Below are positions 8,913 to 19,900 of a stretch of 31,580 bases of DNA, one piece after another. Each line of letters opens with the position of its first letter. Position 1 is the stretch's first letter. This DNA is from a virus (taxonomy: Duplodnaviria > Heunggongvirae > Uroviricota > Caudoviricetes). The position numbers and the translations under genes were made by a program. The notes under the pieces are model-generated. The model saw nothing but the letters and a program-made list of their open reading frames with translations, was not told where the DNA came from and did no database searches. The stretch is from the IMG/VR virus record IMGVR_UViG_2700989363_000008, positions 1-31,580 of that record. One strand, given 5' to 3'.

Positions 8913-8940
8913 CACAAAAAAACCGCCATAAAGGCGGCTT
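8913..8940 (-). terminator. Rho-independent terminator (candidate tR'-like late terminator)
   Basis: On the minus strand: GC stem CCGCC-tttat-GGCGG followed by TTTTTTT (plus strand aaaaaaaccgccataaaggcgg). Lies upstream of the methyltransferase/lysis genes, analogous to lambda tR'. Confidence 0.5.
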
Positions 8941-9024
8941 GTTGGCTGTTGGGTACAAAAAACCCAACTTAACAAAACAATAACTAAAAACCGTCATTTT
9001 GCCAAGCTTTTTCGTTTTTGTGCT

Positions 9025-9042
9025 GTGCGACCGTGGTCGCAC
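9025..9042. repeat. Palindrome family 1 copy (GTGCGACCGTGGTCGCAC; extends to a 24-bp palindrome 9022-9045)
   Basis: Perfect palindrome in the intergenic region between ORF 9048-9275 and the late leader; central dinucleotide GT rather than AC (same site, inverted). Confidence 0.6.
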
Positions 9043-9047
9043 AGCTT

Positions 9048-9275
9048 TTAGAAAGTTGCCTGCTTATATTCATCGGTCAAAGAATATCGACCAGATCCGC
9101 TACGCTTTGCAACCCCAAAACAGATCATCTGTTCGATGATAAATTCAACGGCAGCTTGACTCAAAAAACAGGCTTCGCTTAACTCTTTCAGGGAAATGCG
9201 TGGGTATCCACGCATAACACATTCCACACTCAGGGCCGCTTCAGTCATATTTCCACGAATTTCATTAATATTCAT
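9048..9275 (-). CDS. Hypothetical small protein (75 aa), possibly a winged-helix DNA-binding protein
   Basis: ORF with SD AGAGAGG upstream of ATG 9275; ...ISLKELSEACFLSQAAVEFIIEQ... looks HTH-like. No confident family assignment. Confidence 0.4.
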   Translation of the reverse strand: MNINEIRGNMTEAALSVECVMRGYPRISLKELSEACFLSQAAVEFIIEQMICFGVAKRSGSGRYSLTDEYKQATF

Positions 9276-9288
9276 AACGCCTCTCTAA

Positions 9289-9510
9289 TCAATCTTGAAA
9301 CTGGAAATCAACATCAGCCATAAAGCGGTTCAACTCAGCCAGTTTTGGCCCCATAGTCCCAACTAAGCGACCAGCCAGTCGGTCTGTTAGGTTGGTACTG
9401 TTGAAACCATATTCCTTTTCGAAACGTTCAACCTTCTGCCACAACTCATACAGTTCGTTAGCTATCTCCGCAACATCGTCGCGCATTTTTTCGTTACCTT
9501 GATAATTCAT
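9289..9510 (-). CDS. Hypothetical small protein (~73 aa)
   Basis: Start preferred at the internal Met (9510), preceded by GGAGG 7 nt upstream; the track start at 9528 lacks an SD. Confidence 0.4.
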   Translation of the reverse strand: MNYQGNEKMRDDVAEIANELYELWQKVERFEKEYGFNSTNLTDRLAGRLVGTMGPKLAELNRFMADVDFQFQD

Positions 9511-9675
9511 AATATCCTCCAAATTCATATAGTTAGTGGGTTATTGCCTCTCAATGACACGAACTGTAACTCTGCCAAACGAACACATCCAGTGTTATTT
9601 TTCGCTTTTTAGTGAAATTTTTAATTTGCGTTGTTTTCTTGTTTTGGTGTATTTTATGGATATGGAGGCTATAAT

Positions 9676-9987
9676 ATGTTTAACGTGATAACCCACCCTG
9701 CAGCACTGGATGAACTGCTTGAACTACCAGATGATTTGCGAGGTCGCATGACCAGATTAATTGAGCGACTGGAGAAAGAAGGCAACAAACTGAAGATGCC
9801 CCATAGCCGTGTAATAGGTGGAGGGCTTTTTGAACTACGAGTAGGGGATAAAAACATCGCAAGAACGCTGTACGCCTACGCGACTGGTAACGAAATTTAT
9901 CTATTGCATGCATTTGTAAAAAAGACACAGAAAACACCGGTGAAGGCTATCGAAATCGCCAGAACTCGCCTGAAGGAGATGAACTGA
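9676..9987 (+). CDS. Type II toxin, HigB/RelE-fold (phage Gp49-like family)
   Basis: MFNVITHPAALDELLELPDDLRGRMTRLIERLEKEG...GGGLFELRVGDKNIARTLYAYATGNEIYLLHAFVKKTQKTP fits the Gp49/HigB signature as recalled. GGAGG SD before ATG 9676; stop overlaps the antitoxin start (TGATG). Confidence 0.8.
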   Translation: MFNVITHPAALDELLELPDDLRGRMTRLIERLEKEGNKLKMPHSRVIGGGLFELRVGDKNIARTLYAYATGNEIYLLHAFVKKTQKTPVKAIEIARTRLKEMN

Positions 9988-10274
9988 TGAAAGCGAAAGG
10001 CATCCCGTTTAACGAAGTAAAAGAAAAACTCCTCAACACTCCAGAAGCCGTCAAAGGATATGAAGAGGCCGACAAAGAGCTGGAGATGGTCGAAATGCTA
10101 TACGAAATGAGGGAAAGAGCAGGTTTAACGAAATCAGCTCTGGCTGAACGAATGGGGTTGCGACCGTCAGCCATCAGCCGCCTGGAAAGCAATCCTTTAG
10201 GGGCAAGTATGAAAACTTTGGCTAAATATGCTCATGCCTGCGGCGCAACCATCGATATTCGCGCTGTTTATTAA
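9987..10274 (+). CDS. HTH-XRE antitoxin (HigA-like), partner of the Gp49/HigB-like toxin
   Basis: 95-aa protein with HTH segment LTKSALAERMGLRPSAISRLE; translationally coupled to the upstream toxin. Only plus-strand pair amid minus-strand genes. Confidence 0.8.
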   Translation: MKAKGIPFNEVKEKLLNTPEAVKGYEEADKELEMVEMLYEMRERAGLTKSALAERMGLRPSAISRLESNPLGASMKTLAKYAHACGATIDIRAVY

Positions 10275-10316
10275 TTAGACTCTTTTACTACCCCGTCCAG
10301 AAGGGCGGGGTGTGCA

Positions 10317-10520
10317 TCAATGATGTGAACGCTCAACAGCGATAGTTTTCTGACAATGCTGGGCAATCTCTCGCGACATGTTGATGAGTCGTGAAACCTC
10401 ACCAATATGTAGGCTGGCTTCTGGAGAAGCCAGGGTGACGCTAACCAGATCCAGAACGGCGTCAATATCTCTTAAATTTGAATCGAGTTGTTCAAGAGTT
10501 GATACGGCTGCTTCAGACAT
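10317..10520 (-). CDS. Small protein (67 aa) downstream of a LexA box; candidate SOS-induced antirepressor or similar
   Basis: ORF MSEAAVSTLEQLDSNLRDIDAVLDLV...; the only gene immediately downstream (minus strand) of the LexA box at 10557-10576. Confidence 0.45.
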   Translation of the reverse strand: MSEAAVSTLEQLDSNLRDIDAVLDLVSVTLASPEASLHIGEVSRLINMSREIAQHCQKTIAVERSHH

Positions 10521-10556
10521 TAGATCTCATACCATTTAACTAAAAAAGGTTATTTA

Positions 10557-10576
10557 TACTGTATAAAATTACAGGT
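10557..10576. promoter_or_regulatory. LexA (SOS) box: TACTGTATAAAATTACAGGT
   Basis: Exact CTGT-N8-ACAG with AT-rich spacer, matching the E. coli consensus TACTGTATATATATACAGTA at most positions; about 37 bp upstream of the 10520 start codon. Confidence 0.6.
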
Positions 10577-10602
10577 TAAAACTCAAACTTTACGGTCAAT
10601 TT

Positions 10603-10845
10603 TCAATGAATTAACTGCGTAAACTGCTGTGTGGCCCGATACTTATGCTCTCTCCCTATGCCACGATCAACTTTCTCAAGAAGTCCAGTACGGACAGCAG
10701 AATCAAGCATCCTTTTAACAATTCTGCTATTTAACCCAACATCAAAAGCAAGCATCGAAGCGAAAACAAACCCATCACCACCATCAGAAAAGCTCTTTTC
10801 GCTCCGTTTTCGTATCATTTCAAAAAGCAATGCCTTTTTATCCAT
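10603..10845 (-). CDS. Hypothetical protein (80 aa)
   Basis: ORF with GGAGGG SD; a family-2 palindrome overlaps its ribosome-binding region. Confidence 0.45.
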   Translation of the reverse strand: MDKKALLFEMIRKRSEKSFSDGGDGFVFASMLAFDVGLNSRIVKRMLDSAVRTGLLEKVDRGIGREHKYRATQQFTQLIH

Positions 10846-15045: not shown

Positions 15046-15756
15046 TTACAAAGGCAGAATGGCACTTCCTGCCCGATGGCGTTTGATGATTTCACTGCGC
15101 TTCTCCGCCGCATTTAATAATGCAGTTCGATTTAAGCTCAGACATCGCGACTTAATTAAAAGCCAGCGTTCTTTATAATCTTGTCTCCAGCTATCAATAG
15201 ATATATTCAGTAGAAAACTCAGATGCCTGTCCTGTTCTCTCTCATCAACTGCCTCAGCACACGTAAGTTCTGATTTAACCTGCTGTGCCGCGTAATAAAT
15301 CAATTTCCGCATGGCTTTTTTCGTGGAGGCCTTCATTTTTTTAAAGCCGCCCCCCGAATGAGCAACCAGAAAATCAAGCCATAACCACTGACAAACAATC
15401 ACATCATTGTTGTAATCAGGCTTGCATCCGTAGCAATAATAAAGCCAGGCTGATTCCTCGTTATTCAACTGACCAATAGCCCTGCGCCAGCTGGCGCTCT
15501 GAAAATCAATATCAGTGAGCAACATTGATGATTGTTTAAATGTTTTCCCCTGGTGGAATCTAACCGGCTCAGCAGGAACGGACACTTCGTATGAGTTATC
15601 ATCCCCCACACTGATTGACCGGACTGGTTTATTGTTAAACCGTCCTGACCTACCGAGACGCATCTGCTCAAGCTGGACCTCCAGAATGCCACGCTGGCGA
15701 TAATGAACATCAGCCAATGCCGTAGAGACGCAGCTGCGTATATACTCAAGCTCCAC
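15046..15756 (-). CDS. Regulatory protein candidate (236 aa) immediately downstream of cro; possible Q-like late regulator by position
   Basis: GTG start with AAGGAGA SD; follows cro in the same operon, where N15 is recalled to carry Q. No sequence-level confirmation. Confidence 0.4.
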   Translation of the reverse strand: MELEYIRSCVSTALADVHYRQRGILEVQLEQMRLGRSGRFNNKPVRSISVGDDNSYEVSVPAEPVRFHQGKTFKQSSMLLTDIDFQSASWRRAIGQLNNEESAWLYYCYGCKPDYNNDVIVCQWLWLDFLVAHSGGGFKKMKASTKKAMRKLIYYAAQQVKSELTCAEAVDEREQDRHLSFLLNISIDSWRQDYKERWLLIKSRCLSLNRTALLNAAEKRSEIIKRHRAGSAILPL

Positions 15757-16058: not shown

Positions 16059-16655
16059 ATGAAAACACGAGGCGAACGACTGAAAGCACGCCGTTTAGAG
16101 ATGAAGCTGACGTTGCGAGAAGTTGCTGAGGCTGTCGATATCTCTATAGCAGGCGTCCAAAACTTAGAACGTGGCGACGTAATGCCGTCACTGGAGATAG
16201 GTATTGCCCTGGCTAAGTGCTTACGCAAGCCAGTGCATTGGGTGCTATATGGGACAGAATATGACCCTGACCGCATTCCTGTTATTGGCACAACTGAAAG
16301 TGGGCCGGATGAAGAGTGGAAGCCGGGACAGGTTCCAAATACTGAGCGATTCCTGCCATTCATCAGCCAGCGCAATACTGTGTATGCGTTAACTATCAGC
16401 AATCTTACGCAGGGAAACTATCAGCCAGGCGATTTTCTCCTGGTCGATTCTGCGCTGGAACTGGTCCCCGGCGAGGATGTTCTGGTTCGTGATACTGCAG
16501 GAAATATCACTATCCAGCGCCTGGCCCGTTTTGATGATGAAAATTACTATCTGGATGGAACAAACTCACAACGCGCCATCTTCAGGAAAAGCGATCTTGA
16601 ATTTGTTCACCAAATAGTCGGAACGATCAAATCATTCATGGTTGAGGGTAGATGA
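16059..16655 (+). CDS. cB: Prophage repressor, CI/CB-like (N-terminal HTH-XRE plus C-terminal S24-peptidase-like domain)
   Basis: N-terminus ...LTLREVAEAVDISIAGVQNLERG... (HTH) and a LexA/CI-like C-terminal fold. I cannot see an obvious catalytic Ser-Lys dyad, so it may be non-cleavable, as reported for N15 CB. Confidence 0.75.
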   Translation: MKTRGERLKARRLEMKLTLREVAEAVDISIAGVQNLERGDVMPSLEIGIALAKCLRKPVHWVLYGTEYDPDRIPVIGTTESGPDEEWKPGQVPNTERFLPFISQRNTVYALTISNLTQGNYQPGDFLLVDSALELVPGEDVLVRDTAGNITIQRLARFDDENYYLDGTNSQRAIFRKSDLEFVHQIVGTIKSFMVEGR

Positions 16656-16900: not shown

Positions 16901-19900
16901 ATGACATTAAACGATTTCTATGCGGATCGCTTTGGCAGCGATCCGTTCTCGCTAATTGAAGCAGCACGGGATGAACTAACCGAGCTGGCACAGATGGCTG
17001 GTATCAACTGGCCTGCCTGTTCCGACAACATCCAACTCAACCCTCGCGGGGGGGTTGAGCGTTACTCTTCATACAATAAAACATCTCCAGAAGCTCTCGA
17101 AAAGAGCCTGAAAGGACGCGTAGAAATTTACTCCCGGCTGGAACACAGCAAAGGGATTGATTACCCGTTCATTAACTTCGTCCATAAAGGCAGCGATGCT
17201 GGCTCATGGAGCGGTTTCTCCTTCCTGTTTTCTGAATATCGCCGTGAGCAACAACGGAATAATGCGACCGTGGTCGCACAACCGGAAGAAGAACGGGAAA
17301 GAATAGAACGTCAGGCCGAAGCACGTCGTCGCCGTGAAGAACAAAAACGAATTAATGACCTGAAAAACAACCAAATGGACCATGAACGTTTGCTGGGATG
17401 GCTGGCATTCCACAGCGCGTGGGAACATGCTCCGGCTGAAGACGGCTCATGGCCATATGCGATTAAAAAAGGTATTCGTGACGTTTTTAGTTCATGTGAT
17501 GTGCGTCGCGTGACCAGTCACGACAGTGCGAAATGGAGTCGGGGACCAACCACATATATGGCTATCCCTCTGGCTCACCTGGACGGTCGTTACGATGGTC
17601 GTATTGTGGGTTGGCAGCGAATCGACAAACAAGGTGGGAAATACCAGACCAGCGCAGTAACCAGCGGCGATTTCGTCGGTGCCTGCTTTGTTATCGGTGA
17701 GCTGAAAGGGGCGCAAAACATCGCTGTTACAGAAGGTTTTGCTACTGGTGCATCCATCTGGCTTGCCACGAAAAAAGATAAACGCTTTGACGCTGTGGTT
17801 GTCGCTGTATCCGCTAACAACATGGTTCATGTTGTGGAACAACTGGTAAACATGTACCCGGCGGCAAAAATCACCTGCGCACTGGATAATGACCGGAAAT
17901 CTGCCACAGAAGGAAAAGGGAATACCGGCCTGCGGACTGGCTATGAAATCTTATCGAAATTCAACGATGTCCGCTGCGTCTATCCAACTTTTGAAGACGA
18001 TCCGCAAATGGAGTGCAGTGACTTCAACGACCTGCACAAACTACGTGGACTTCGTGAAACAGCACGTCAACTATTTGCAACAGCAAACCGCCTGAAAACC
18101 GGTACTGATTTGCTATCTCTGACGCTCAACCGCCTGAAGACAATTAAGCGGGATAACCGTCGTACTTTTGCCAAAGAGCTGCTGAGAGCGGTGGATATTG
18201 GCATGCTAACCTGCCCGGTTCCTAACAGTCCGTCAGATTTATTTAACATGTTCTGCATCGTTCTGCGTGAAATGGGACTGGAAAATATCTATCGCGCTAC
18301 GGTAAAAGACCACATTGCCCGTCGCCTGAATAAAAAGTGCCGTATTGCCCAGGCTCCGCGCTCTTTCAGCGAAAGCATAACTGATCCCAATAAACGCCCT
18401 CAACATATCACCTATAAGCGTTTTGAAACTTCGGTAATGACCGATGATGTCCTGAAGTACGTGCAATCACTACAGGGGATAGTCATCGTCCGTGCTGGTA
18501 TGGGTTCCGGCAAATCTACTGGATTGTTACGACCGTTAATGCATAGCTCAGAACGTGGTATCTCTGTTGCTCACCGTGTCTCCCTTATTGGTGGCCTGTG
18601 GGAAATGATGACAGAAGGAAAAGGTGTAAAAGCCGATATCCTGCACTATCAGGACCCTGGCTATCAGGAAATGGCTCCATACGCCAGTAAACTGACCATC
18701 TGCATAAACTCGATTGTTAAAAACTGCTGGCAACCGTTGATGCGCCAGCACGACTATTTTGGCTTTGACGAGGCCACGCAAGGGCTACGTGCCGTTCTTT
18801 CCGGTCGGGCTATGGAAAACCCGGTTGCTGTATTCAATACGCTAATTGACGCGCTGGCCAGAACGGAACAACACCCAATCATGGTGGATGCTGATGCGAA
18901 CGATCTACTGGTTGACTTGGCTGAACTGGCTATGAAACGCCGTGAAGATCTAGGTTTACCGGCATGGCTGCAGATCCACGTAATTGAATTACCTGTTGAT
19001 GTTCGCAACCGCGAAACAGGTGAGCCAATCCGGGTTTTTTATACAGAAAAAGATCGCATCATGACCGAGGTGGTGAAAGCTGTATCGGATGGCGAAAAAA
19101 TCATGTTGGCCACCGACAGCTCCACCTTTGCAGAAGATGTGACAGCCACCCTGAGAATGCATTTTCCTGGTAAGAAATTTCTGTGCGTAAACCAGAAAAG
19201 CAAACAGGATGAAGAAGTCGATGCCTTTACCAACCAGCCAAAAGTAATGGTGATGAAATACGATGGACTGATCTACAGCCCGTCGATTTCCTCCGGGGTG
19301 TCATTTGAGAAAAAACATTTTGACCGTCATTTCGGCATGTTCTGCGGTGAAGTTGTGCCCAGCGACGCAGTGCAAATGCTACGCCGCGACCGTACAGCAA
19401 AAGAATTTATTATCGGCTTTGATAAAGCTCGTGCAAAACGCGAGACTGATCCGCAAAAAATAGAACGTGCATTCGCCCAGGCATTACTTGCTACCGCAGG
19501 CATGAACGGTGAACTGACGGATGTCGTTTTCGATGGCGACCGTATATCAATGGGGGTGGCCAATACCGACTTTACCAGGATGAAAATTAAAGCTGCCGCA
19601 ATTGAAGCGTCTGCGCGTAACGACTACGCCAGCAACATGATCTGCATCATGCACAGCGACGGTTATAAGGTATCGCCATTAGCTACCGATTATGCCGCAA
19701 ATGATTTTGGTAAAGAGCTGCGCAAAGAAGCGCGGGATATTGTGTGGGAACAGACGCTGGATCTGCACCTCAATACAGAGACACCAGAAGAATCAGAGCG
19801 TGAAGAACTACTAAAAAAACGTGCGCTAACGCTTGAAGAACAGGCAAAACTGGTCCGCTGGGATATTGAGAACGAACTGAAATTACCGGTTGAAGAAGGC

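Follow-up and report, generated by a model that had tools for sequence, protein, structure and literature searches.

The closest described relative of the gene pair analysed here is gp49-gp48 of coliphage N15. Its toxin, gp49, is classed in the Tad toxin family (COG4679/DUF891) of the RelE superfamily, and three later papers credit the functional validation of the pair to Dziewit et al., 2007 (J Bacteriol 189:1983; cited in PMC5906591, PMC2701414, PMC3606827). Orthologous pairs occupy the same genome position in phiKO2 (Gp49/Gp48) and in the Klebsiella phages KpLi5, NAR688 and Kpn_R1. In the 2007 study gp49-gp48 reportedly stabilised heterologous replicons, and the toxins, when overexpressed, are said to have been bactericidal in E. 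coli. Each gene of the cassettes reportedly had a promoter in front of it, two in all, and the homologues tested are said to have differed in their effect on cell morphology. The Pfam family PF05973 'Gp49' (phage derived protein Gp49-like, DUF891) takes its name from N15 gp49.

Several other systems are similar in part. [quoted passage not shown] S. pneumoniae HigBA (6AF3/6AF4) and M. tuberculosis HigB(TAC)/HigB1 (7NBU, 7AWK) belong to the same Pfam family and share a conserved pocket with the toxin described below, but the M. tuberculosis system depends on a SecB-like chaperone gene that has no counterpart here. The classical HigBA systems of plasmid Rts1 and E. coli K-12 share the toxin-first order, a RelE-superfamily toxin and an HTH antitoxin, and they stabilise plasmids, but their toxins fall under PF05015 and PF09907. 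Finally, phd-doc of phage-plasmid P1 follows the same logic, addiction to a plasmid-replicating prophage, although its proteins are unrelated (the toxin is a Fic-fold kinase) and its antitoxin gene comes first.

The window (the whole stretch of viral DNA analysed, 31,580 nucleotides) carries a pair of this kind, with the following features:

9676-9987, plus strand: toxin gene, ATG at 9676 and TGA at 9985-9987, 103 aa, Gp49 family (RelE/ParE superfamily), orthologue of N15 gp49 with 92% identity.
9987-10274, plus strand: antitoxin gene, ATG at 9987 and TAA at 10272-10274, 95 aa, XRE/HTH_3, orthologue of N15 gp48 with 85% identity.
9664-9668, plus strand: Shine-Dalgarno sequence GGAGG of the toxin gene, 7 nt upstream of the ATG, invariant in six relatives.
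9973-9978, plus strand: Shine-Dalgarno sequence AAGGAG of the antitoxin gene, 8 nt upstream of the ATG and within the 3' end of the toxin gene.

The preliminary description had placed overlapping toxin and antitoxin genes at these coordinates on the strand opposite to their neighbours, and the boundaries prove exact to the base. The open reading frames and the Pfam matches bear out a Gp49-type toxin gene followed directly by an XRE-HTH antitoxin gene on the plus strand, and the overlap is a single nucleotide, the A of the toxin stop codon being the A of the antitoxin start codon (TGATG). An overlap at this junction is kept in N15, phiKO2, KpLi5 and the plasmid copies; in N15 it is the same one-nucleotide TGATG, whereas in phiKO2 it spans 4 nt (ATGA). 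A longer, TTG-started frame of 118 aa (9631-9987) is not the toxin gene, as it has no ribosome-binding site; we place the start at the ATG at 9676 because every annotated relative starts there and because the stretch upstream of it contains insertions and deletions between relatives.

The pair lies in a 16-kb block of minus-strand phage genes. It was initially described as the only plus-strand pair, which is true of the left 16 kb (all real genes there, between about 1250 and 15756, are on the minus strand) but not of the window as a whole, since cB, repA and sopAB further to the right are also on the plus strand. The surroundings of the pair that bear on the nature of the element are:

9005-9000 (-35, TTGGCA) and 8982-8977 (-10, TATTGT), minus strand: conserved late promoter.
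8940-8920, minus strand: intrinsic terminator after the late promoter.
15046-15756, minus strand: Q antiterminator.
16059-16655: HTH repressor.
16901-20884: RepA-like protein of 1327 aa.
23031-24944, minus strand: protelomerase with all four TelK/ResT domains.
25115-25156: telRL palindrome, between telN and sopA, uncut, with the core CCATTATACGCGCGTATAATGG at 25125-25146.
25592-27723: SopA/SopB-type partition proteins.

The location of the pair at an early/late boundary is roughly right, in that the conserved late promoter and its terminator lie about 670 bp to the left of the toxin gene, with the homologues of gp50 and gp51 standing in between. The host element had been called a plasmid-prophage, and the protelomerase, telRL and the partition genes agree with this. 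Together with the RepA-like protein, the Q antiterminator, the repressor and the similarity to phages of the genus Ravinvirus, they identify it as an N15-like linear plasmid-prophage: across 88% of 25 kb the window shares 97% identity with PhiR46_1 and YDC107_1, both Escherichia phages, and it is more distantly related to phiKO2. The telRL core is, as we take it, identical to the N15 telO sequence. Because telRL is found uncut inside the window, the record represents the virion or a circularly joined arrangement rather than the hairpin-ended prophage.

Judged by its sequence and its place in the genome, the pair corresponds to N15 gp49/gp48 as a positional orthologue. In all relatives the same genes precede it on the left, on the opposite strand (the methylase, the late promoter and terminator, gp51 and gp50), and the same genes follow it on the right, where a small convergent antC-like gene is succeeded by gp47 and gp46. 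The toxin is 100% identical to that of PhiR46_1 and YDC107_1, 92% identical to N15 gp49, 91% to phiKO2 Gp49 and about 88-91% to the proteins of Klebsiella N15-like phages, while the antitoxin is 85% identical to N15 gp48 and 80% to phiKO2 Gp48. At the nucleotide level the pair differs from that of N15 by about 20%, almost exclusively through synonymous changes. Compared with N15 and phiKO2, the toxin gene is 79-80% identical in DNA and 91-92% in protein, with a dN/dS of 0.03-0.04. For the antitoxin gene synonymous sites are saturated against N15, and comparison with two plasmid copies (E. coli and E. fergusonii) gives a dN/dS of 0.055-0.076. Strong purifying selection acts on both genes, with dN/dS values of about 0.03-0.08. 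The corresponding value for KpLi5 is not valid, because the toxin gene there, unlike that in the window, has a one-codon deletion that shifts the ungapped alignment.

A search of 5,426 complete E. coli genomes found the module in 16. In every case the carrier is a plasmid, either of about 46 kb or a larger derivative, and no copy is chromosomal. The protelomerase gene of the window occurs in 17 complete E. coli genomes, and 16 of these carry the module; the one protelomerase-positive record that lacks it, NZ_CP031108.1 (a plasmid of E. coli AMSCJX02), has 27,197 bp, far below the usual size of about 46 kb, and may therefore be a deleted or defective derivative. Since the module accompanies the protelomerase in 16 of the 17 genomes, and always on the plasmid, it belongs to the core genes of the phage-plasmid lineage rather than to a variable cargo island. 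PLSDB holds 29 plasmids with the module, from E. coli, E. albertii, E. fergusonii and Shigella, 28 of them typed as non-mobilizable. In RefSeq the plasmid copies are labelled by PGAP as a 'type II toxin-antitoxin system RelE/ParE family toxin' and a 'helix-turn-helix transcriptional regulator'. The system has been known from N15 since 2007 and is routinely annotated, so its recognition here is a rediscovery and not a new idea. It carries little weight as a discovery and is useful as annotation, the window being a typical Ravinvirus phage-plasmid in which the gp49/gp48 toxin-antitoxin pair completes the maintenance set, alongside telN/telRL, repA and sopAB with its scattered centromere sites.

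The toxin matches the Pfam family Gp49 (PF05973) over all 90 profile positions (1-90) with 101.6 bits (E=2.5e-29; the gathering score is 23.9 bits), well beyond what chance would produce. No other Pfam family matched at E≤0.01, including HigB (PF09907), HigB-like (PF05015) and ParE (PF05016). The earlier label 'HigB/HigA-type' thus fits loosely, by gene order and superfamily, and does not fit by family, as the match is to Gp49 and not to HigB or HigB-like. Among PHROGs the protein falls in phrog_2523 (unknown function), and a search against NCBIfam matched no model. Among solved structures, the toxin is closest to S. pneumoniae HigB (6AF3, E=5.5e-5) and to M. tuberculosis HigB1/HigB(TAC), whose ribosome-bound form 7NBU is one of the matches; identities to solved HigB proteins are about 25-30%.

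Membership of the Gp49 family alone does not guarantee activity, since the M. tuberculosis paralogues HigB2 and HigB3, which lack several residues of the pocket, are non-toxic (PMC9098466). In HigB(TAC) that pocket, the catalytic one, comprises K58, E66, R68, N73, R77, F93, K95, Q98 and K99, most of which are required for toxicity (Mansour et al., 2022, PMC9098466). In our alignment, for which the chain index, running 6 below the published numbering, was corrected before residues were matched, K58, E66, R68, N73, F93, K95, Q98 and K99 are aligned with R45, E53, R55, N60, F80, K82, Q85 and K86 of the window toxin, and R77 is one position away from R63. Unlike HigB2 and HigB3, the window toxin therefore retains the pocket residues. 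A single-sequence AlphaFold2 model had a mean pLDDT of only 45, too poor to use; at this low confidence its predicted order of elements (H-H-E-E-E-E-H, that is, two helices, four strands and a long C-terminal helix) matches the published description of Gp49-type HigB (PMC9098466).

Because the nearest structures are HigB RNases, the pocket is conserved and the gp49 family is summarised as ribosome-dependent mRNases with a toxin-antitoxin gene order (PMC11980606), ribosome-dependent cleavage of mRNA is the most likely activity of the toxin, by homology at about 25-30% identity. The RelE/ParE superfamily holds a second activity on the same fold, and the toxin might instead be a ParE-like poison of gyrase; the RefSeq name 'RelE/ParE family toxin' is non-committal between the two, and the differing effects of the homologues on cell morphology, as reported for the 2007 study, would be in keeping with it. 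We consider a gyrase poison the most improbable of the alternatives weighed here, given that ParE (PF05016) gave no match at E≤0.01, that the residues which contact RNA in the nearest solved proteins, HigB RNases, are conserved, and that the family is listed with the ribosome-dependent mRNases (PMC11980606).

The antitoxin matches Pfam HTH_3 at residues 38-90 (E=2.8e-12), with a DNA-binding helix-turn-helix domain of the XRE/Cro type at residues 36-92. Its PHROG is phrog_1373 (transcriptional regulator), NCBIfam returned only HTH models below threshold, and the nearest solved antitoxins are M. tuberculosis HigA2, HipB and S. pneumoniae HigA.

The non-coding sequence around the pair contains the following features:

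9550-9574: block CTCAAYGACACGAACTGTAACTCTG, invariant in an alignment of six relatives.
9585-9592: block ACATCCAG, conserved in the same alignment.
9600-9617, no strand assigned: palindrome TTTCGCT-TTTT-AGTGAAA, conserved in the same alignment, candidate operator for the HTH antitoxin.
9626-9653, plus strand: putative sigma-70 promoter of the toxin-antitoxin operon, from sequence reading and conservation, with -35 TTGCGT at 9626-9631, extended -10 TG at 9645-9646 and -10 TGTATT at 9648-9653.
10286-10314, no strand assigned: G+C-rich hairpin between the convergent stops of the antitoxin and antC-like genes, -19.8 kcal/mol, z = -3.4.

The 147 bp that separate the gp50 homologue from the toxin gene (9529-9675) have a mean column identity of 83% in six relatives and are thus better conserved than the synonymous sites of the genes (pS ~0.65-0.7). 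The palindrome and the -10 region in it are shared with N15. In N15 and three other relatives the palindrome is perfect (TTTCACT/AGTGAAA), whereas the window copy has one mismatch in its left arm, a G at the variable position of TTTC(A/G)CT. The N15 record labels it as the stem-loop of a putative terminator. With its 7-bp, A+T-rich stem, no consistent U-run and folding on neither strand beyond that of shuffled sequences, however, it is more economically read as an operator for the antitoxin, and we infer this function here. The candidate operator is upstream of the putative -35, an unusual place for a repressor site. The -10 reads TATATT in N15, phiKO2 and KpLi5. A consensus promoter scan of 9200-10700 found no promoter above threshold upstream of the toxin gene and no internal promoter before the antitoxin gene, so that the operon promoter, too weak for the scan, is a putative one.

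A conserved small RNA or leader structure in the intergenic region finds no support, as folding was no better than that of shuffled sequences (z = -0.9 and -1.0 for the two strands) and RNAalifold gave essentially no covariation. A search of 9200-10800 against Rfam returned a single sub-threshold match, to RyhB (23.9 bits against 55, E=0.12), which we read as chance.

Apart from the operon signals, CTCAATGACACGAACTGTAACTCTG and ACATCCAG (9550-9592) stand out as non-coding blocks that barely vary across six relatives, among which synonymous sites are almost saturated. Here, too, no signal of RNA structure was seen and Rfam gave only the sub-threshold RyhB; the blocks are possibly a protein-binding site or a promoter of gp50/gp51. 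The gp50 homologue itself (9289-9528, minus strand) probably starts not at 9528 but at the second ATG, at 9510, which is preceded by GGAGG and agrees with the 222-nt annotation of the gene in N15 and YDC107_1.

Downstream of the pair there is no SecB-like chaperone gene of the kind that follows the antitoxin gene in the M. tuberculosis system; the next gene is convergent and encodes 67 aa, with no Pfam match (10317-10520, minus strand). On the minus strand it is preceded by the sole LexA box of the window, TACTGTATAAAATTACAG at 10557-10574. The frame and its LexA box are also present in N15, where the frame is unannotated, and in YDC107_1, KpLi5 and two plasmids, and we take it to be, most likely, the SOS-controlled antirepressor AntC that Mardanov and Ravin reported in 2007. 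A terminator scan of 9200-10700 found no canonical terminator after the antitoxin gene. The hairpin at 10286-10314, which differs in sequence from that of N15 and lacks its U-run, is probably a barrier to transcription or a terminator, judging from its folding; the corresponding position in N15 is occupied by a canonical terminator.

These surroundings bear on whether the pair might mainly regulate the phage life cycle, with the HTH protein acting on phage promoters and the Gp49 protein serving as a co-repressor or modulator and not as a toxin; one possibility is a link to prophage induction by way of the antC-like gene, which is convergent and LexA-controlled. The antitoxin is indeed a generic XRE DNA-binding protein whose PHROG (1373) is named 'transcriptional regulator', the conserved blocks within 9529-9675 exceed what a simple promoter needs, and N15, YDC107_1, KpLi5 and two plasmids all preserve the convergence with the gene that has the LexA box. 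A purely regulatory Gp49 protein is nevertheless hard to reconcile with the retention, under strong purifying selection, of the pocket residues of active Gp49-type RNases and with the family evidence, and the N15 orthologue, as reported for the 2007 study, stabilised plasmids and was toxic on overexpression. We therefore regard a mainly regulatory role as very unlikely.

Taken together, the data favour, with a probability of about 85%, a type II toxin-antitoxin system of the N15 gp49-gp48 type (the Tad-Ata/Gp49-type HigBA group), in which a ribosome-dependent mRNase and a labile antitoxin act in post-segregational killing. The preliminary description had likewise proposed an addiction module, and the orthologous N15 pair has been interpreted in this way in print (Dziewit et al., 2007, cited in PMC5906591, PMC2701414 and PMC3606827). 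The toxin, with a RelE fold by homology, would enter the ribosomal A site and cut mRNA under translation, and the 95-aa antitoxin would bind and neutralise it, its XRE helix-turn-helix most likely repressing the operon's own promoter. With a promoter of its own and an orientation opposed to that of the repressed lytic genes, the operon could be expressed in the lysogen. In a daughter cell that loses the low-copy linear plasmid-prophage, the labile antitoxin would decay and the freed toxin would kill or arrest the cell, and this killing of segregants would add to the stability provided by SopAB partitioning. The mRNase activity, the lability of the antitoxin, the autoregulation through the palindrome and the benefit to the native prophage are what we infer in this scheme. 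The last of these is not proven for N15-type prophages, as the published stabilisation concerns heterologous replicons and as deletion from its native element of the SXT homologue included in the study of Dziewit et al., 2007, did not raise the loss of that element (PMC2654960).

A role in anti-phage defence would be compatible with addiction, but defence as the main role seems unlikely, though plausible by analogy. Infection would remove the antitoxin, by loss or sequestration, and the freed mRNase would abort the infection, so that the lysogen population and the resident phage-plasmid would be protected. Type II toxin-antitoxin systems are increasingly found as defence elements, and a Gp49-family HigB of an E. 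coli toxin-antitoxin-chaperone module causes abortive infection, with the lambda tail protein as its trigger (PMC11980606). The present module, moreover, is on a mobile element and would be expressed independently of the lytic genes, and residues 43-95 of the toxin show a weak, partial PADLOC match to the C-terminal part of NsnC (E=2.6e-7). On the other hand, no system model of PADLOC-DB v2 fits the pair, the antitoxin matches generic HTH models only, no chaperone or sensor gene adjoins it, and its position is a fixed, core one in all relatives, not that of a variable defence island.

For the addiction module that we favour, the arrangement with the antC-like gene raises one further idea. The toxin-antitoxin operon is convergent with this LexA-controlled gene, separated from it by the hairpin and antisense within the early lytic operon, and the arrangement might constitute a functional circuit, which we hold to be doubtful. 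SOS induction or lytic transcription would then cause read-through antisense to both genes and shift the balance between toxin and antitoxin. If true, prophage induction or superinfection by a related phage would be coupled to a shut-off of host translation, and the addiction module would double as an induction-linked or defence switch in phage-plasmids.

Three further loci of the element deserve mention. The late-promoter region (8920-9045, minus strand) resembles those of N15 and phiKO2 and contains a palindrome, GTGCGACCACGGTCGCAC, which in phiKO2 is annotated as a putative partition site; with its promoter and terminator the region looks like a Q-antitermination unit before the methylase and lysis genes. 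On the plus strand, 21431-21631 has Rfam matches at gathering level to C4 antisense RNA (21544-21631), its a1/b1 target (21431-21483) and isrK (21444-21517), and is an antisense-RNA immunity locus of the P1/P7 type, the kind of locus known in N15 from its secondary immunity region. Finally, just downstream of sopB, 27790-27993 on the minus strand matches the Rfam RNA family IS009 with 126 bits, against a gathering score of 117.
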